From Candidatus Eiseniibacteriota bacterium (GTDB lineage Bacteria > Eisenbacteria > RBG-16-71-46), in assembly GCA_044222065.1 (NCBI GenBank), contig JBGAOA010000002.1, forward strand, positions 1-64,000: a stretch of DNA of 64,000 nt, read 5' to 3'. Each line of letters starts with the position of its first letter. Within the stretch, counting starts at the first letter, position 1. Made by a program: the position numbers and the translations under genes. Shown here piece after piece: positions 1,813 to 17,232 of this stretch. The notes under the pieces are model-generated. The model ran no database searches and was not told where the DNA came from. It saw nothing but the letters and a program-made list of their open reading frames with translations.

Positions 1813-2151
1813 TCAGCGGGTGATCGCGCGGACGAGAACGGCGCCGGCGAGCGCGCCGAGCGCGTCCGCCGCGAGGTCGGTCGGATCGAAGCGCGTCGAG
1901 CGGCCGTCGCGCCACTCCTTCGCGATGCCGAGCACCAGCGTTCCGGCCGCGCCGATCTCGGGTTCTCGCGTCGCGATGCCGGCCGACGTCGCGAGCGCAA
2001 AGCTCAGTCCCGCGTGCTGCAGTCGGTCGGGGGCGAGCAGGCCGACCTGCCAGGCGCGCGCGCGCGCATCCGGCAGCGGCGGCTCCGCCGCGCGCGCGGG
2101 CGCGGCCGCGGCCGCGAGCAGGAGGGCGCATGCGATCGTGGTTCGGCGCAC
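1813..2151 (-). CDS. YfiM/DUF2279-like small exported or membrane protein
   Basis: Signal peptide; DRLQHAGLS...KEWRD...FDPTDLAADALG resembles YfiM-type DK..H / KE..D / DL..D motifs. Confidence 0.6.
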   Translation of the reverse strand: MRRTTIACALLLAAAAAPARAAEPPLPDARARAWQVGLLAPDRLQHAGLSFALATSAGIATREPEIGAAGTLVLGIAKEWRDGRSTRFDPTDLAADALGALAGAVLVRAITR

Positions 2152-3557
2152 GGCGGGAGCCTAGCACGACGGCCGACCTCGAGGCCGACGCGCGCGCGCG
2201 GCTCTCGCGGCGCGACTGGCCCGAGCCACTGCTCGCGGCGCTCGCGCGGCTGCGCGAGGGCGGGCACCAGGCGTGGCTCGTCGGCGGCGCCGTGCGCGAC
2301 GCGCTGCTCGGTCGCGCGCCGTCCCGGCGTGGGACACGTCGCGACCGATCTGCGCCCCGAGGCGGTGCGCGAGCGTTCGCGCGCGTCGAGCCGATCGGCC
2401 TCGCTCACGGGACCGTGCTCGTGCTCGAGCCCGGCGTGGCGCTCGAAGTCACGACGTTCCGCCGCGAGGCGTACGCCGACGCGCGCCATCCGGACTCGGT
2501 CGAGTTCACGGACGATGCCCGCGCCGATCTCGCGCGGCGCGACCTGACGGTGAACGCGCTCGCGTTCGATCCCGCGAGCGGCGTGCTGCTCGATCCGCAC
2601 GGTGGGCTCTCGGATCGCGCTGGCCGCCTGCGCGCCGGTCGGCGATCCGGCGGCGCGCTTCGCCGAGGACGCGCTGCGTCCGCTCGGGTCGCCCGCTTCG
2701 CCGCGACGCTCGAGATGGCGCCCGAGCCCGCGACGCGCGCGGCGCTCGCGATCCCGCTCGAGCGCGCGTCGCGCGTCGCGTGGGAGCGCGTGCGCGACGA
2801 GCTCGTGCGTACGATGGCGGCGCGCACGCCGTCCACCGCGTGGTGGCTGCTGCGCGAGGCCGGATTGCTCGCGCGCTGGCTCCCGGAGCTCGACGCCTGC
2901 TTCGCGGTGCCGCAGAACCGCCATCACGCCTACGACGTGTTCGTCCACAGCCTCGAGACCTGCGACGCGGCGCCGGCGGACAAGCCGCGGGTGCGGTGGG
3001 CCGCACTGCTGCACGACGTCGGCAAGCCCGGCACCGCCGTGCTCCGCAAGGGGGACTGGACCTTCTACGGGCACGAGAAGCTCGGCGCCGAACTCGCGGA
3101 CCGCGCGCTCGAGAGGCTCCGCTTTCCGACGGCCGAGCGCGAGGCGGTCGTGCACCTCGTGCGCGAGCACATGTTCGACTACCGCGCGCACTGGTCCGAG
3201 GCCGCGATCCGCCGCTGGCTGCGGCGCGTCGGCGTCGAATCGGTCGCCGATCTGTTCGACCTGCGAATCGCCGACGCGCAGGGCAACGGACTCCGTCACG
3301 GCTGGCCCGGAGCGCTCGACGAGTTCCGCGACCGGATCGAGCGCGAACTCGCGCGGGCGAGCGCGCTCACGGTGCGCGATCTCGCGCTCGGCGGCGCGGA
3401 CGTGATGCGCGTGCTCGGCGTGCCGGCCGGCCGCGAGGTCGGCGAGGCGCTCGACGCGATGCTCGAGCGGGTGCTCGAACACCCCGAACTCAACACGCCC
3501 GAGGCGCTCGAGCGCGAGCTGTGCGCGTGGGGTCGCGAACGCCGTCGTGATGCTTGA
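2130..3557 (+). CDS. cca: CCA tRNA nucleotidyltransferase / poly(A) polymerase family with HD domain; compensating frameshifts; start uncertain
   Basis: LVGGAVRD, EVTTFRRE, DLARRDLTVNA, LLHDVGKP and FYGHE. The expected ATDLRPE and VGDPAARFAEDALR segments lie in other frames (about 2330-2380 and 2620-2690). Confidence 0.85.
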   Translation: MRSWFGARREPSTTADLEADARARLSRRDWPEPLLAALARLREGGHQAWLVGGAVRDALLGRAPSRRGTRRDRSAPRGGARAFARVEPIGLAHGTVLVLEPGVALEVTTFRREAYADARHPDSVEFTDDARADLARRDLTVNALAFDPASGVLLDPHGGLSDRAGRLRAGRRSGGALRRGRAASARVARFAATLEMAPEPATRAALAIPLERASRVAWERVRDELVRTMAARTPSTAWWLLREAGLLARWLPELDACFAVPQNRHHAYDVFVHSLETCDAAPADKPRVRWAALLHDVGKPGTAVLRKGDWTFYGHEKLGAELADRALERLRFPTAEREAVVHLVREHMFDYRAHWSEAAIRRWLRRVGVESVADLFDLRIADAQGNGLRHGWPGALDEFRDRIERELARASALTVRDLALGGADVMRVLGVPAGREVGEALDAMLERVLEHPELNTPEALERELCAWGRERRRDA

Positions 3558-6701: not shown

Positions 6702-7627
6702 GCGGGCGGAGCGAGATCCTGGTCGTCGGCTCCGTCGCGTACGACTCGATCCGCACGCCGTTCGGCGAGGTCGAGGACGCGCTCGGCGGATCGGCGTCGT
6801 ACTTCTCGTGCTCGGCGAGCCACTTCGCGCCGGTCAAGCTCGTGGCTGTCGTGGGCGAGGACTTCCGCCCCGAGCATCGTGCGGCCTTCGAAGGCCGCGG
6901 CGTGGACCTGAGCGGGCTCGAGACCGCCGCCGGTCGCACGTTCCGCTGGCGCGGCGAGTACGCCGCCGAACTCGGCCACGCCCACACGCTCGAGACCCAG
7001 CTCAACGTGTTCGCGAGCTTCCAGCCGCGACTCGCGCCGCAGCACCGGAACGTGCCGTTCGTGTTCCTCGCCAACATCGATCCCGACCTGCAGCTGCACG
7101 TGCTGTCGCAGATGAAGAAGCCGCGGCTCGTGCTGTCGGACACGATGAACTACTGGATCGCGCGCAAGCCCGACCGCGTGCTCGACGTGCTGCGCGCCGT
7201 GGACGTCGCACTCCTGAACGAGGAGGAAGCGCGCGCGCTCGCGGGCGAGACGCAGCTCGTGCGCGCGGCCGACCGGCTGCTCGAGCAGGGCGCCCGCTCC
7301 GTGATCGTCAAGAAGGGCGAGCACGGCGCGCTCTACCGCTCGCACGACGAGCGCTTCATCACGCCGGCGTTTCCGGTCGAGTCGCTCCGGGATCCGACCG
7401 GCGCCGGCGACTCGTTCGCGGGCGGCTTCCTCGGCTGGCTCGCGCGCTGCGGCCGCATGGACGGCGATGCGATCCGGCAGGCGCTCGCGTGCGGCACTGC
7501 GATGGCCTCGATCGCGATCGAGGGATTCAGCCCGCAAAGGCTCATCGAGACCGACCTGGAAGAGATTTCCGCGCGGGTTACGACCCTCCACCGAATGGTG
7601 AGCTTCGCGCTGGAACCCTTGATCTAG
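6698..7627 (+). CDS. PfkB-family carbohydrate/nucleoside kinase
   Basis: VVGSVAYD...LGGSA N-terminal motif and DPTGAGDSFAGGF signature; ATGA overlap with argS. Confidence 0.92.
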   Translation: MSGRSEILVVGSVAYDSIRTPFGEVEDALGGSASYFSCSASHFAPVKLVAVVGEDFRPEHRAAFEGRGVDLSGLETAAGRTFRWRGEYAAELGHAHTLETQLNVFASFQPRLAPQHRNVPFVFLANIDPDLQLHVLSQMKKPRLVLSDTMNYWIARKPDRVLDVLRAVDVALLNEEEARALAGETQLVRAADRLLEQGARSVIVKKGEHGALYRSHDERFITPAFPVESLRDPTGAGDSFAGGFLGWLARCGRMDGDAIRQALACGTAMASIAIEGFSPQRLIETDLEEISARVTTLHRMVSFALEPLI

Positions 7628-7653
7628 TCGTTTGTTCCGGGGATCGTTCGGTG

Positions 7654-7662
7654 TGCTAACAT
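7654..7662 (+). promoter_or_regulatory. Putative extended -10 promoter for the 7704-10034 module
   Basis: TG-c-TAACAT in the intergenic region after the pfkB stop. Confidence 0.45.
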
Positions 7663-7703
7663 TGCCGCCGTCGTGCGGTCCCGACTCAACCCCCGGAGGC
7701 GCG

Positions 7704-8489
7704 GTGGCACTCGATACGAGCCGACTGCCATGGAAAGAGCAGCTGGAGGCCGCGATCCGCAGCCTGCGTGACGTGAAGGCCGCCAGCGTGGTCGCGGACG
7801 GCGAGCACATTCGAGAAATCCACGTCGTGGCCGGTCCCGGCCGAGGCCCCAAGCACATCGTTCGCGACGTTCAGACCGTGGTCGTGGCGCGCTTCGGCCG
7901 CCCGTTCGACCACCGCGTGGTGTCCGTCGCGATCGCCGAGGACGAGCCTGCCTCGATTCCGGCCGCCGTTGCGCCCGTCGCGGCGCCGGCTCCCGCCGAA
8001 CGCCCCGCCACGCCCCCGGCGGAGCCGAACGGCCTCGTGCGCGTGGCACGAATCCGGTTCGTCAGCGTCAATCTGTACGTGTCGGGTCCGCGAGCCCAGG
8101 CGCAGGTCGAGCTGCGTTGGAAGGGCATTTCGCGAATGGGCAGTGCGACCGGGACCGCGACCCGGGAGGGCGCCTCTCAGCTCGTCGCCGCGGCGACCGT
8201 ATCCGCCTTGCAGGAATTCCTCGAGGACGGCTGGGGCCTCAGCGTCTCGGGCGTCCAGTTCGCGAGCGTCGGCCGCAAGGAAGTCGTGATCGTCGCATTG
8301 ACGCTGCTCGCGCACCGCCAGGAAAAGTCACTGGTGGGAAGCTGCACGATCGAGCAGGATGCGCACCAGGCGGTCGTGCTCGCCACGCTCGCGGCGCTCA
8401 ATCGCGTCGTCGGCGGACTTCCGACGCGCGAGCCGACCGAATACGTTTTGAGACCGACATCGACTCAGGAGGACAGCGAAGCGGTCTAG
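7704..8489 (+). CDS. Conserved hypothetical two-domain protein; C-terminal half resembles the LeuA (2-isopropylmalate synthase) allosteric domain
   Basis: GTG after GGAGG; N-domain EIHVVAG..RGPKHIVRDVQT..FDHRVVSVA; Pro/Ala linker; C-domain ending LVGSCTIEQDAHQAVVLATLAALNR. Confidence 0.75.
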   Translation: MALDTSRLPWKEQLEAAIRSLRDVKAASVVADGEHIREIHVVAGPGRGPKHIVRDVQTVVVARFGRPFDHRVVSVAIAEDEPASIPAAVAPVAAPAPAERPATPPAEPNGLVRVARIRFVSVNLYVSGPRAQAQVELRWKGISRMGSATGTATREGASQLVAAATVSALQEFLEDGWGLSVSGVQFASVGRKEVVIVALTLLAHRQEKSLVGSCTIEQDAHQAVVLATLAALNRVVGGLPTREPTEYVLRPTSTQEDSEAV

Positions 8490-8566
8490 CCTCGAACAGC
8501 GGAGCGGACGCACCTTTCGGATCACTCGATCCGATGAGGAATTCATCCTCGAAGGAGGTGACGTTC

Positions 8567-8605
8567 GTGGACATCCTCGTGCTGTTGGGCAAGGCGGGCT
8601 GGTAA
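8567..8605 (+). CDS. 12-aa micropeptide MDILVLLGKAGW (signal peptide or leader peptide)
   Basis: Perfect SD AAGGAGGTGA (8552-8561), 5-nt spacer, then GTG GAC ATC CTC GTG CTG TTG GGC AAG GCG GGC TGG TAA in an otherwise intergenic region. Confidence 0.6.
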   Translation: MDILVLLGKAGW

Positions 8606-8622
8606 TCTCCCGTAACGACGGA

Positions 8623-8663
8623 ACCGGCGCCGAACGCCGGTAGACATCTCCGGACGAGATGTC
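8623..8663 (+). promoter_or_regulatory. Tandem RNA hairpins between the micropeptide and the HD-GYP gene
   Basis: ACCGGCG-ccgaa-CGCCGGT (8623-8641) and GACATCTC-cggac-GAGATGTC (8643-8663), followed by a C/T-rich tract with no poly-U. Confidence 0.55.
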
Positions 8664-8717
8664 GGTCTCACTCTTACTCACCTCACGCAGGCGAGCCCCC
8701 GGCCACTCGACAGGGAC

Positions 8718-10034
8718 GTGAACCAGAGAACGGGCCACAAGCACACTTTCGCGTTCCGCCTGTACTACGGCGTTCTCGCGGCCAGCGCCGCGATGCTGCT
8801 GCTGTTCGGAACGCCCTGGGATTCGCCGCCTTCGCTCGCGCTGCTGCTCGGACTCGCGGCGCTCATGCTCGTCGCGGACCTGAACCCGGTGCGCCTCCCG
8901 AGCGGCGGGATCGCGACGGGCTCGGGCATCCTCGACCTTCCTGCGGTCGTGCTGTTCGGCCCCGCGTGGACCGCGTGGGTGAGCCTCCTCAGCACGGTGG
9001 TCACCGAGGGCTTCGTCGCGCGCCGGCCGACGGTTCGAGTCGTGCACAACCTCGGCTGCTACGCCGTCACGTACTTCGCGAGCGGCTGGGCGTTCCAGCG
9101 CGCGGGCGGGCGCTTCGGTGAACTGCGCTATCCCGACGACATCCCCGCGCTGCTCGCTTGCGGGCTGACGTACTTCCTCGCGAACTCCGTTCTCGTCTCG
9201 ACCGTGATCGGGCTCACGCAGGGCCCGGACCCGTGGCGCGTGTTCCAGAGCAACTTCCTGCGCGGGCTCTTCCACCACCTGTCGTTCGTCGCGCTCGGCA
9301 CGCTCGTCGCGGTCGTGTACTTCAGCACAGGACCGTGGGGCGTGATCCTCTTCGTGCTTCCGTACGTCGTCGCGCGCCACTCGTTCGCGCTCTTCATGGA
9401 GATCAAGTCCGACCTCAAGGACTTCGTGCGCGCGCTCACCGAAGTGCTCGAGGAAGTGGATCCCTACACGCGGCACCACTCCGTGCGCGTCGCGGAGTAC
9501 TCGGTTCGGCTCGGTCGCGGCCTCAAGCTGCCGGAGCACCACATCGAAGAGATCGAGTACGCGGCGCTCGTCCACGACCTCGGCAAGATCGCGCCCCAGC
9601 ACCAGCACATCCTCCAGAAGCCGGGCTCGCTGTCGCACGAGGAGCAGCGCACGCTTCGCGAGCATCCGGGGGCCGGGGCCGAGATCGTCGGCAAGGTGCG
9701 CGCGCTGCGGCGCGCGGCCGAGATCGTGCGCAGCCATCACGAGCGCCCCGACGGCAAGGGCTATCCGTACGGCCTGCGCTCCGAGGACGTGCCAGTCGGC
9801 GCGCGCATCCTGAACGTCGCCGACGCGTTCGACGCCATGACTTCGGACCGCCCGTACCGCCGCGCGTTGCCCGTGCCGGTCGCGATCGGCGAGCTGCAGC
9901 GAGGCGCCGGGACGCAGTTCGACCGCGCCGTCGTCGAGTGCCTCGTCGCGATGCACGGCGTCGGGCGGTTCCCGCTCATCCCGAGTCCGAGCAGCGAGGA
10001 CCTGCTCCACCTCCGCCTCCAGATGAGGGCGTGA
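8718..10034 (+). CDS. HD-GYP cyclic-dinucleotide phosphodiesterase with a multi-pass N-terminal membrane sensor (MASE9-like)
   Basis: About 7-8 hydrophobic segments, then DPYTRHHSVRV, LVHDLGKI, HHERPDGKGYPYGL and VADAFDAMTSDRPYR. Confidence 0.92.
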   Translation: MNQRTGHKHTFAFRLYYGVLAASAAMLLLFGTPWDSPPSLALLLGLAALMLVADLNPVRLPSGGIATGSGILDLPAVVLFGPAWTAWVSLLSTVVTEGFVARRPTVRVVHNLGCYAVTYFASGWAFQRAGGRFGELRYPDDIPALLACGLTYFLANSVLVSTVIGLTQGPDPWRVFQSNFLRGLFHHLSFVALGTLVAVVYFSTGPWGVILFVLPYVVARHSFALFMEIKSDLKDFVRALTEVLEEVDPYTRHHSVRVAEYSVRLGRGLKLPEHHIEEIEYAALVHDLGKIAPQHQHILQKPGSLSHEEQRTLREHPGAGAEIVGKVRALRRAAEIVRSHHERPDGKGYPYGLRSEDVPVGARILNVADAFDAMTSDRPYRRALPVPVAIGELQRGAGTQFDRAVVECLVAMHGVGRFPLIPSPSSEDLLHLRLQMRA

Positions 10035-11090: not shown

Positions 11091-12090
11091 ATGGAACGAA
11101 CGAAACACCGGGAGGTTCAGGCCCCCGAACTGATCGGCGAGTCGCCGGCGTGGATCGAGGTGCGCGGCCAGCTCGCGCGCGTCGCGGCGAGCGGACTGCC
11201 GGTGCTGTTGCTCGGCGAAACCGGCACGGGCAAGGAACTCGTCGCGAGAGCGATCCACGCGTTCTCGCCGCGGCGCACGCACGGCTTCGTCGCGCACAAC
11301 TGCGGCGCGACGCCGGACACGCTGATCGAGAGCGAACTGTTCGGACACAGCCGCGGCGCCTTCACCGGTGCCGTCGCGGATCGCGAGGGGCTGTTCGAGG
11401 CCGCCGACGGCGGCACGATCTTCCTCGACGAGATCGGCGATGCGAGCCCGCTGCTGCAGATGAAGCTGCTGCGCGTGCTGCAGGAGGGCGAGGCGAGGCG
11501 CGTCGGCGACACGCGGCTCCGGCGCATCGACGTGCGCGTCGTGTCGGCGACCCACCGGCCGCTCGACGAGCACGTCACGGCCTCCGGTTTCCGCGCCGAC
11601 CTCTACTACCGCCTGAACGCCGTCGTGCTGCGGCTGCCGCCGCTCCGCGAACGCAGGGCGCGACGCGCTGCTGCTCGCGCACGTTCCTCGCGCGCGCGCC
11701 GCCAGCGCAGGGCGACGCGCGCCGTCGCTCGACGACGGGCTCGCGGAGCACGTGCTGCGCTATCACTGGCCCGGCAACGTTCGCGAGCGCGCGAACGCGT
11801 GCGCCGTCGCGGTGCGCGGCGCGGGCGCGCGAGGCGTCGTGACGCTCGAACACTGGCCGCCGCCGAGCCTCGCGGGCGCCGCGGCCGAACGCGGGCTCCA
11901 CGGCGAGACGCGCGCGCTCGAGGAGCGCCGGCTGACGGAGGCGCTGCGTCGTTCGCGCGGAAACAAGTCGGCCGCGGCGCGCGCGCTCGGACTCTCGCGG
12001 CAGGGATTGCTCAAGAAGCTCCGTCGCTACGGGCTCGAATGCGAAGACGACGCGGCCGCGAACCTTGACCCGGTCGGAACCGGTCCCTAG
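11091..12090 (+). CDS. Sigma54-dependent Fis-family activator without an N-terminal sensor domain; frameshifted near 11655-11750
   Basis: [39 protein letters not shown]; the WPGNVRE and HTH ([14 protein letters not shown]) segments are in the 11752-12090 frame. Confidence 0.85.
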
Positions 12091-15809: not shown

Positions 15810-16537
15810 CCGGCGCCGGCGGTGCGCGCGCCCATCCGCCGATCGTGCTCGGCGCGCTCGCCGGCGGCATGGTCGCCGGCCGGGCCGAAACCGTGCTCGG
15901 CTGCCTCGCCGTCGCGACGGCCGGCGCGCTCGCGAGCGGTGCGCGGCCCGATGCGCGCGCGCTCGGGCGGCTGTTCGCGGTCGCGGCGTTCGCGTTCGCG
16001 CTCAACCTGTGGCTCGTGCGCGGCACGCCGTGGCCCGCGGCGTCGTTCGGCCCGCTGCACGCGACGCGCGAGGGCGCGGCGCTCGGCGCGATCATGGCCG
16101 GGCGGCTCGTCACGGCGGCGGCGGCGATCGCGGCACTCAGGCGCCTGTGGCCGGGCGAGCGCGCCGCGGAGGAGGTCACGCAGCTGCTGATGCCGTTGCG
16201 CCGGCTCGGCGTTCCGGTGCTCGAAGCGCGCGCCGTGTTCGCGCTCGCGCTGCGCTTCGCGCCGCTCGTCGCCGAGGAGACGCGCCGCATCGCGCGCCAG
16301 CAGGACCTGCGCGCGGGACGCCCCGCCGCTTTGCCCGGCGAGCGCGTCCAGCGGTGGCGCGCGCGGCTCGTGCCCGCGCTCGCCTCGGCGCTCGAGCGCG
16401 CGGAAGCGGTCGCGCTCGCGCTCGAGGCGCGCTTCGACCGCGTCCGGCCGCTGCCCGCGTCGGCGCCCGCGCCGTGGGCCTCGGTCGCGGCGGGATGGCT
16501 GCTCGCGGGGGGCGCGGCGTTGTGGCGAGCGCGTTGA
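15806..16537 (+). CDS. Energy-coupling factor transporter transmembrane component (EcfT/CbiQ family)
   Basis: Transmembrane helices plus ALRFAPLVAEETRRIARQQDLR and LERAEAVALALEAR (the two Arg motifs). Confidence 0.8.
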   Translation: MTGAGGARAHPPIVLGALAGGMVAGRAETVLGCLAVATAGALASGARPDARALGRLFAVAAFAFALNLWLVRGTPWPAASFGPLHATREGAALGAIMAGRLVTAAAAIAALRRLWPGERAAEEVTQLLMPLRRLGVPVLEARAVFALALRFAPLVAEETRRIARQQDLRAGRPAALPGERVQRWRARLVPALASALERAEAVALALEARFDRVRPLPASAPAPWASVAAGWLLAGGAALWRAR

Positions 16538-17232
16538 AGACGTTCCGGCTCGTGATCGGCTACGACGGTACGGAGTTCCACGGCTGGCAGGTGCAACCGG
16601 GGGCGCGAACGGTGCAGGGAGAGATCGAACGCGTGTTGCAGGAACTGCTGCAGCTCGAGTCGCTCAGGATCCACGGCGCGGGCCGCACCGACGCCGGCGT
16701 GCACGCGCGCGGGCAGGTCGCGTCGTTCGAGTGCGAGACGGCGCTGCCGGCCGCGGCGATCGCGGCCGAGGCCCCCGCGGGGTACCAGGCGGGCCTTTCG
16801 GCGCGCGCGCGCTGCTACGCGTACCGCCTGCTCGAGCGCGACGACGTGCCGTGGCGGCGCTTCGCGTGGCGCCCGGCGCTGCGCTGGGACGCGGGCGGGC
16901 TCGCGCGCGCGACCGAGGCGCTCGAGGGCGAGCACGACTTCGCCGCGTTCGAATCCACGGGCTCTTCCGAGACGGTCACGCGCTGCGCGCTCCGGCGCGC
17001 GCGCTGGTCCGGCTGGGAGGGCGGGCTGCGCTTCGACGTCGAGGCGGACCACTTCCTCTATCACATGGTGCGGAACATCGTCGGCACCGCGCTGCAGCGC
17101 TCGTGCGATCCCGACCCCGCGGCCGCGATGCGCGACATCCTCGCGAGTGGCGACCGGCGGCGCGCGGGGCTCACCGCGCCCGCGTGCGGGCTGACGTTGG
17201 AACGGGTCGTCTATCCGGAGGACGCGTCGTGA
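16522..17232 (+). CDS. truA: tRNA pseudouridine(38-40) synthase; possible internal deletion near 16760
   Basis: IGYDGTEFHGWQ, AGRTDAGVHA, FLYHMVRNIVG, TAPACGL. Confidence 0.93.
   Translation: MASALKTFRLVIGYDGTEFHGWQVQPGARTVQGEIERVLQELLQLESLRIHGAGRTDAGVHARGQVASFECETALPAAAIAAEAPAGYQAGLSARARCYAYRLLERDDVPWRRFAWRPALRWDAGGLARATEALEGEHDFAAFESTGSSETVTRCALRRARWSGWEGGLRFDVEADHFLYHMVRNIVGTALQRSCDPDPAAAMRDILASGDRRRAGLTAPACGLTLERVVYPEDAS

Follow-up and report, generated by a model that had tools for sequence, protein, structure and literature searches.

A micropeptide gene within a structured RNA beside a MASE9-like HD-GYP gene shares its C-terminal end with HFS-tailed proteins of the same genome

The window, a 64,000-nucleotide stretch of a contig of Candidatus Eiseniibacteriota bacterium (JBGAOA010000002.1), contains a very short open reading frame (ORF) enclosed by a folded RNA and located between a gene designated here as X and a gene encoding a MASE9-like membrane domain with an HD-GYP domain. 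Judging from its conservation in related genomes, this ORF is a real, previously unannotated gene, and it belongs to an undescribed cassette of peptide, RNA and sensor. The peptide ends with the residues KAGW, and so do two MAIN/ZU5-like proteins encoded in the same genome, at least one of them a lipoprotein; this link is new, and the shared end suggests that micropeptide and lipoproteins alike signal to a membrane sensor with control over c-di-GMP. The sequence comparisons make it moderately probable that MASE9 recognises the KAGW end as its ligand, delivered either as a micropeptide or as the tail of a self-cleaved protein, and that X gates translation of the peptide via AGCG repeats. The features of the locus in the window are as follows:

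7704-8489, forward strand: gene X, an alpha-beta-beta-alpha-beta N-terminal domain and a LeuA/citramalate-synthase regulatory-like domain; candidate RNA-binding regulator
8449-8461, forward strand: 5' arm of helix P1 (MFE fold), overlapping the last codons of X here and lying after the X stop codon in other loci
8475-8483, forward strand: AGCG repeat 1, AGCGAAGCG, candidate X binding site, in invariant columns of the alignment
8498-8506, forward strand: AGCG repeat 2, AGCGGAGCG, which extends as far as the anti-SD strand and overlaps it, invariant in the alignment
8504-8519, forward strand: anti-SD strand, pairing with the Shine-Dalgarno (SD) site and the start codon (MFE fold)
8552-8561, forward strand: SD site AAGGAGGTGA, within which AGGAGGTG is invariant in 29 aligned loci
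8567-8605, forward strand: micropeptide gene MDILVLLGKAGW; relatives mostly of 16-17 aa, range 8-50 aa
8658-8670, forward strand: 3' arm of helix P1 (MFE fold, pair changes)
8718-10034, forward strand: MASE9-like membrane domain and HD-GYP c-di-GMP phosphodiesterase (HD_5 E-value 1.4e-36; HD and GYP motifs intact)

The preliminary description had read an SD site, a short spacer, a GTG start, 12 codons and TAA at this place, and each coordinate was reproduced from the sequence: the GTG at 8567 follows the SD site after a 5-nt spacer, the 12 codons include the start, and TAA ends at 8605. The ORF list also bears out that this ORF appears only as the tail of a 162-aa frame (8117-8605), which is ruled out as a gene, since it overlaps X out of frame. 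The suggested 23-aa form starting from ATG 8534 did not hold; it is in frame, but no SD site precedes it and it is not kept in relatives. The 10-mer AAGGAGGTGA has eight copies in the 4.2-Mb genome (72% GC). Among 1002 SD-led starts of ORFs of 7-60 codons in this genome, five pass a loose filter for a W ending, and only the window micropeptide ends with KAGW; frames ending exactly with KAGW and a stop codon number three among 75,736 stop-to-stop frames of the genome, namely the micropeptide and two proteins with an HFS-containing tail. NCBIfam has no name for such peptides. Elsewhere in the window, a sigma-54 activator gene (11091-12090), a CCA-enzyme-like gene (2130-3557) and a truA-like gene (16500-17232) look frameshifted or incomplete, which is likely due to assembly errors.

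Among 61 genomes of the class, 56 have a match to X, and 50 of those 56 loci, the window's own included, were examined; the tallies over 61 genomes (X and DUF5317) and over 81 genomes (relatives of the KAGW proteins) include the unpublished genome G038, and related genomes are non-independent observations. At the same position, 46/50 loci have an ORF that is preceded by an SD site and ends with [KRQH]x[GSHW]W, so a chance origin of the ORF is not the explanation, and a loss of the ORF and SD site in relatives, the outcome that would have spoken against the gene, is not what these loci show. The other four have their own circumstances: two contigs end early (L038 and L045), and the genomes of L197 and L201 carry the peptide elsewhere beside a MASE9 gene. 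In the last five codons of 27 peptides of 16-19 aa, the majority base has a frequency of 0.90, 0.90 and 0.73 at codon positions 1, 2 and 3, respectively. All three stop codons are used (TAA in 26, TAG in 17 and TGA in 3 of 46 peptides). The comparison of orthologous regions thus gave the synonymous variation and the conserved terminal Trp that had been proposed as a check, and the codon pattern indicates that the peptide is under coding selection.

The length of the peptide varies from 8 to 50 aa, and the window's peptide, with 12 residues, falls short of the usual 16. Gly before Lys/Arg is missing in the peptides of eight loci, and most peptides contain a single Trp codon. The core is present in three tandem copies in five loci (GKxGW in L028, L044, L048 and L049; GGHAWW in L033). 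The conservation of the end against this variation in length, together with the tripling of the core, points to the C-terminal end as the signal, and we infer that [KR]AGW would be its sole carrier. The N-terminus of the class peptides is acidic and amphipathic, while the 8-aa peptide of L023 lacks a helix; a signal peptide was found on none of the micropeptides of the class. The triple-core peptides have short, mostly acidic spacers between the copies and resemble multi-copy pheromone precursors.

The ORF is enclosed by P1, a 13-bp helix; the fold has a z-score of -3.79, and none of 200 shuffled sequences was as stable. In 29 aligned sequences, 7 of 14 P1 pairs show changes on both sides, and the structure as a whole has 88.5% of cells paired against 41-51% for slid partners, in a test biased in favour of the structure because it was derived from the same 29 sequences. 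The anti-SD helix has 87% of cells paired, with both-sided changes in only one of seven pairs. Two invariant repeats of the form AGCG[AGT]AGCG precede the ORF; the motif is found in 46/46 close leaders, where 1.4 are expected, and the leaders contain about four AGCG each (expectation 1.2-1.4). The ribosome-binding site (RBS) is more paired than with a shuffled upstream sequence in 42/46 loci, and when the AGCG sites are forced open, its pairing falls more than with random sites in 36/46 close loci but in only 24/61 distant ones, so that this folding test favours a switch in the close relatives and not in the distant loci. By its conservation, this is a small structured mRNA closed by P1 that encodes the peptide and keeps its ribosome site paired. 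Rfam contains no corresponding family (a single chance snoRNA match at an E-value of 3, and only cspA and tRNAs in 12 of the 80 cross-phylum loci described below), and the structured RNA is undescribed. The earlier reading of the region had recognised the peptide gene and had overlooked the conserved RNA structure and the link to gene X.

Neither a sigma-70 promoter nor an intrinsic terminator was found in 7500-8800; U-rich tracts follow P1 in many loci. In L051, the stretch from X to the RNA element contains a sigma-70-like promoter (TTGAAT, 17 nt, TATAAT; found by eye), so in this locus the RNA may be transcribed separately from X. Contigs from RNA libraries (metatranscriptomes) cover most or all of the ORF without mismatch in 4/4 studies, and in one run a contig spanning 8458-8671 has a depth of 45 versus 2.4 for the adjoining contig. 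The agreement of this contig with the P1-bounded unit is only a hint at a discrete, abundant RNA, since contigs cannot show ends, strand or level, the material may be DNA, and the runs were picked for containing part of the region; stretches of the window that such contigs leave uncovered were given no evidential weight. GCGNAGC is a mark of single-stranded DNA mini-hairpins. Such a hairpin was considered for the repeats and dropped, as the G-U pairs on the forward strand and the many AGCG(G/A) variants fit RNA better. In eight leaders, mostly from Coriobacteriia/Actinomycetota (L090, L097, L101, L103, L117, L126, L128 and L129), a hairpin with an AGCG loop and a helix covering the RBS appear by eye to use the same strand; these are the clearest candidates for a two-state switch.

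Gene X has no match above the cut-off in Pfam or NCBIfam; its family comprises 3810 clusters at 50% identity. The predicted structure (pLDDT 87) matches LeuA in a Foldseek search (E-value 4e-6), and a VIA comparison with the LiCMS regulatory domain gave a Z-score of 9.8; residues ~6-81 resemble the C-terminal domain of CDF (VIA Z 8.7) and a BolA-type protein (Z 7.4). No conserved GxxG of the KH type was found in the alignments. The co-occurrence of X with the motif and the likeness of its fold lead us to infer that X binds the AGCG repeats; it would thereby set the amount of peptide, with a small ligand at the LeuA-like domain as a possible input. Across five Bacillota genomes, the genome-wide counts of the 9-mer point to no clear regulon (71 against 47, 30 against 19, 16 against 19, 1 against 2 and 9 against 5).

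A cross-phylum scan seeded with distant members of the X family yielded 590 confirmed loci, the best 80 of which belong to Bacillota, Actinomycetota and Armatimonadota, with a few from Eisenbacteria; the gene order of X, RNA, peptide and MASE9-like HD-GYP recurs in the first three of these phyla. Among these best 80 of 590 loci, 69 contain a complete peptide ORF (nine found by eye), and the other 11 comprise six cut by contig ends or Ns, one without room for the ORF and four lacking both the peptide and the HD-GYP gene. An HD-GYP gene lies within 1.3 kb downstream in 64/80, and the AGCG motif precedes 60 of the 68 scorable peptides, 1.7 being expected. The longest long-range helix has a mean length of 12.7 bp in 68 distant and 13.4 bp in 46 close loci versus ~9.6 bp in shuffled sequences; in 35/68 distant and 29/46 close loci it is longer than in 19 of 20 shuffles. 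Outside Eisenbacteria the peptides, as judged by eye, are signal-peptide-like with a short tail (LAGGA followed by NFKW and similar), and some end with F, L, M or I instead of W. Cultured carriers of the cassette include strains of Thermoanaerobacter, Thermoanaerobacterium and Desulfosporosinus, which makes the cassette directly testable. Four peptides (L056, L057, L060 and L065; three labelled Armatimonadales and one under another name) have a lipobox-like I-[TSA]-G-C where the others have LAGG, which may point to lipid modification or to cutting of the signal peptidase II type.

Twenty actinobacterial loci, chosen by DUF5317 and not by X, indicate what travels with what. The AGCG motif is present in 7/7 peptide leaders of X-bearing loci, including those with divergently transcribed X, and in 0/8 leaders of X-less loci; three X-bearing and three other loci yielded no peptide. 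Seven loci without X have the peptide beside MASE9 genes, and 5/7 source genomes of X-less loci, which may be incomplete, have no X match. It follows that the RNA motif goes with X, and the peptide goes with MASE9. The two split loci of the window's class show the same partners: in L197 a gene is inserted after X and the peptide stays beside MASE9-HD-GYP, and in L201 the peptide is on another contig, beside a MASE9 kinase. In L041, X, the RNA and the peptide are kept without a MASE9-HD-GYP gene.

Of the best 80 of 590 X loci, 40 have a gene for the candidate peptidase DUF5317 in their flank (one spurious match removed). D138, D155, G86, N90 and G161 are invariant in 37 DUF5317 sequences, the spacing of the Asp residues is LspA-like, and both of them align with LspA of the window's genome. 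The direct comparison with LspA is weak (hhalign probability 2%, E-value 0.025; Foldseek E-value about 6); VIA gave two matches with Z-scores of 5.2 and 5.0, some 92 residues superposed at an rmsd of 3.2-3.6 and the top identity of the list, which we take to be LspA. No description of DUF5317 was found in a literature search that excluded subscription journals. In Bacillota and Actinomycetota, the peptide may be a signal-peptide-like precursor (LAGGA, then xxW) that is perhaps cut by DUF5317. DUF5317 was found in 0/61 genomes of the window's class, nor did a relaxed profile scan of the window's genome reveal it, and a search for an export route of the class peptides found neither a signal peptide nor this gene. 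Beside the peptide in the window there is also no gene that would fit a radical-SAM Lys-Trp RiPP. A second, divergent signal peptidase II-like gene (L169; G000:C76:44129-44518, reverse strand) is situated at the end of a contig, next to an integrase-like ORF; no link between it and the cassette was found.

The membrane domain encoded at 8718-10034 scores under the Pfam MASE9 (PF20972) cut-off, and its Atlas neighbours are MASE9 (0.90-0.92); the cut-off is passed by the same-position gene of L074 and by a paralogue (E-value 2e-18 to the profile of the window's protein). A complex prediction for the 30-aa peptide of L029 with its own MASE9 gave a score of 0.05 against a mark of 0.32, and has no weight either way. 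An alignment of 167 MASE9 domains contains a conserved acidic residue and two conserved Asn in membrane segments, which are candidate contacts for the Lys/Arg and the backbone of the peptide. Two further arrangements are worth recording: a stand-alone MASE9 gene following a gene that by eye resembles a proton-dependent oligopeptide transporter (L238, G031:C215), and a single MASE9 gene preceded by two almost identical peptide genes whose leaders are duplicated as well (L174, G176:C13).

The two other proteins of the genome that end exactly with KAGW are encoded by the following genes:

G000:C75:21800-22384, reverse strand: lipobox protein of 194 aa with an HFS-x-KAGW end (L131/L206), directly before a stand-alone MASE9 gene
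G000:C89:~112700-113206, forward strand: KAGW-ending HFS-type protein (L203), similar to the C75 protein

The HFS motif is located 10-15 residues before the end in both. The MASE9 gene behind the C75 protein has no output domain; the C89 gene lies behind a large gene that by eye looks OmpA-like, with no MASE9 within 13 kb. Relatives of these proteins were found in 43/81 genomes. A [KR][AS]GW end is present in 31 of 33 HFS-tail ORFs from 32 loci (one of the two non-matching ORFs, L229, is from the unpublished genome G038), and in 52 of 87 database homologues, all within the best 58, with a small bias since the query included the KAGW tail. MASE9 is directly behind in 14/32 loci, and 18/32 have none within the flank (mostly 1.5 kb, sometimes shorter). 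The pairing is not strict: among 20 other MASE9 genes of the class, three have a MAIN-like neighbour and none has the micropeptide.

MAIN domains cleave at HF|S (Brogan and Rudner, 10.64898/2026.05.12.724683). In 28 sequences of the KAGW lipoproteins, F and S of the HFS motif are invariant and H is present in at least 90%; an HX(S/T) motif is present before the last strand, and Pfam ZU5 matches weakly (2/28, best E-value 0.014), with no sequence match in the PDB. On the HFS motif and these weak Pfam matches, the lipoproteins resemble MAIN/ZU5 domains and probably self-cleave. They have an N-terminal lipobox, no cargo and, in most, a tail of 7-15 residues; as the spacer between HFS and the KAGW motif varies, the fold does not include the motif as a fixed strand. 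A distant MAIN-like clade known from metagenome loci (L256-L335) ends with HFSxYA[IV]AW; these 80 loci form one close group and are counted as one observation. MASE9 is found in none of the 80, and an HD-GYP gene is behind in 60, TPR-fused in L256, the sole one scanned. It is a hint that HFS tails feed c-di-GMP enzymes via more than one sensor, and the clade is possibly a second module from tail to c-di-GMP, with a Rap-like sensor.

The preliminary description had proposed a ligand or pheromone-like peptide for the downstream membrane sensor. A ligand is still the best reading, given the same C-terminus on lipoproteins beside MASE9, and the pheromone part, with export and spread, found no support in the class, where neither signal peptides nor DUF5317 were found. 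According to the preferred reading, [KR]AGW would bind MASE9 from the outer face or within the membrane and change HD-GYP activity, and so the level of c-di-GMP, and the lipoproteins, if cut at HF|S, would free a KAGW tail that is the same ligand acting in trans. A more specific version, in which MASE9 is a peptide receptor reading [KR]AGW both from the RNA-gated micropeptide and from a Stachel-like agonist provided in trans by a self-cut lipoprotein, is put forward tentatively, as we consider it possible and yet doubtful.

Several other explanations start from the same observations. The main rival, which we regard as unlikely, is that the peptide is neither cut nor exported and serves as an amphipathic accessory subunit binding MASE9 from the cytoplasmic leaflet, in parallel to MgrB and SafA, which act on PhoQ. 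The acidic amphipathic N-terminus without a signal peptide, the failure to find DUF5317 in the class and the binding within the membrane predicted for MASE9 (10.1101/2021.11.05.467447) agree with such a subunit; against it, lipobox-bearing proteins on the outer side carry the same end, the triple-core peptides look like precursors, and the L023 form has no helix. A small chance is given to an intracellular receptor of the peptide or tail (a TPR protein, or X through its LeuA-like domain, in the manner of Phr/Rap), which the peptide would meet by remaining inside the cell or by entering it again, MASE9 being merely co-regulated. X does have a fold of the ligand-binding regulatory type, L041 retains X and the peptide without MASE9-HD-GYP, and a TPR-HD-GYP follows the distant HFS-tail clade, but peptides are found beside MASE9 in genomes without an X match, and where the cassette splits it is MASE9 that the peptide accompanies.

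The remaining two explanations place the function in the RNA. The position of the ORF inside P1, the U-rich tracts, the Trp codon adjoining the stop and the sequestered RBS would suit a leader peptide acting in cis, with a ribosome at the Trp codon or stop toggling P1 and read-through into HD-GYP and the peptide itself inert. This attenuator is highly improbable, because the amino-acid motif also ends unrelated lipoproteins of ~200 aa, distant peptides are signal-peptide-like and do not all end with W, peptide genes without the RNA motif still adjoin MASE9, and the window has no canonical terminator. Alternatively, the RNA might be the main product, a CsrB-like decoy whose AGCG sites titrate X, and the peptide secondary (a dual-function RNA). 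The excess of AGCG in the leaders and the deep RNA-library contig coinciding with the P1-bounded unit are in line with a decoy; the 9-mer, however, has no clear genome-wide excess that would mark an X regulon, and the peptide shows coding selection, which leaves the decoy scarcely credible.

No description of the cassette was found in the literature searched, which excluded subscription journals and the supplements of both preprints cited here. Small precursor genes beside a sensor, with the active part at the C-terminus, are known from Phr/Rap (RRNPP) and Agr, and the cassette shares these two features, as well as a signal-peptide-like leader in Bacillota. It differs from them in that the sensor is MASE9, the output is c-di-GMP and the control is apparently exerted on RNA; it has no AgrB or RRNPP gene, and no cytoplasmic TPR receptor is adjacent to the micropeptide, whose neighbours are X and MASE9-HD-GYP. 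In RNAIII/delta-toxin and type I toxin mRNAs, a small ORF is embedded in long-range 5'-3' pairing with the RBS sequestered, and the same general plan is seen in the window; unlike in those RNAs, the conserved part is an end of 4-5 residues, the peptides are as short as 8 aa, and no antisense antitoxin was seen. Amino-acid attenuators, with their run of one codon, competing terminator and antiterminator folds and biosynthetic genes downstream, differ from the cassette as well, which in most loci has a single Trp codon, has no terminator in the window and is followed by an HD-GYP gene.

MASE9-HD-GYP phosphodiesterases, including T. maritima TM1467 and S. venezuelae HdgA, have been described by Galperin and Chou (10.1101/2021.11.05.467447), who predicted ligand binding within the membrane; the window's gene likewise combines a membrane domain with an intact HD-GYP domain. 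The main text of that preprint does not contain the word 'peptide', and the text consulted here does not mention an RNA element, X or a lipoprotein partner. MAIN domains and the bacterial ZU5 autopeptidases (Zhang et al., PMC3482391) have an exported beta domain ending with HFS and a last strand, as the KAGW lipoproteins probably do. The published MAIN proteins are large, with the order of cargo, MAIN and anchor, a C-terminal wall anchor and release of the N-terminal cargo, and their authors state, in the text consulted here, that no signalling by the C-terminal fragment is known (10.64898/2026.05.12.724683). In the KAGW lipoproteins, by contrast, the anchor is N-terminal, cargo is absent, and the fragment would be a short conserved peptide encoded beside a receptor gene.

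There is also a likeness to the GAIN domain and Stachel of adhesion GPCRs, where the protein cuts itself and so presents a short peptide to a multi-pass receptor (10.64898/2026.05.12.724683). Unlike Stachel, the putative agonist would be the C-terminus of another protein, the receptor would be MASE9, and a free micropeptide gene gives the same end. If true, the tentative receptor model would give prokaryotes an equivalent of adhesion-GPCR signalling that feeds straight into c-di-GMP. It would also offer a first candidate answer to the question, raised in the same preprint, of whether bacterial GAIN-like domains signal through their C-terminal fragment. The comparison also provides a concrete, synthesisable ligand candidate for an orphan sensor domain present in several phyla, and adds to it a structured RNA that is new, as well as X, which represents a large family without prior characterisation and is a likely RNA-binding regulator.
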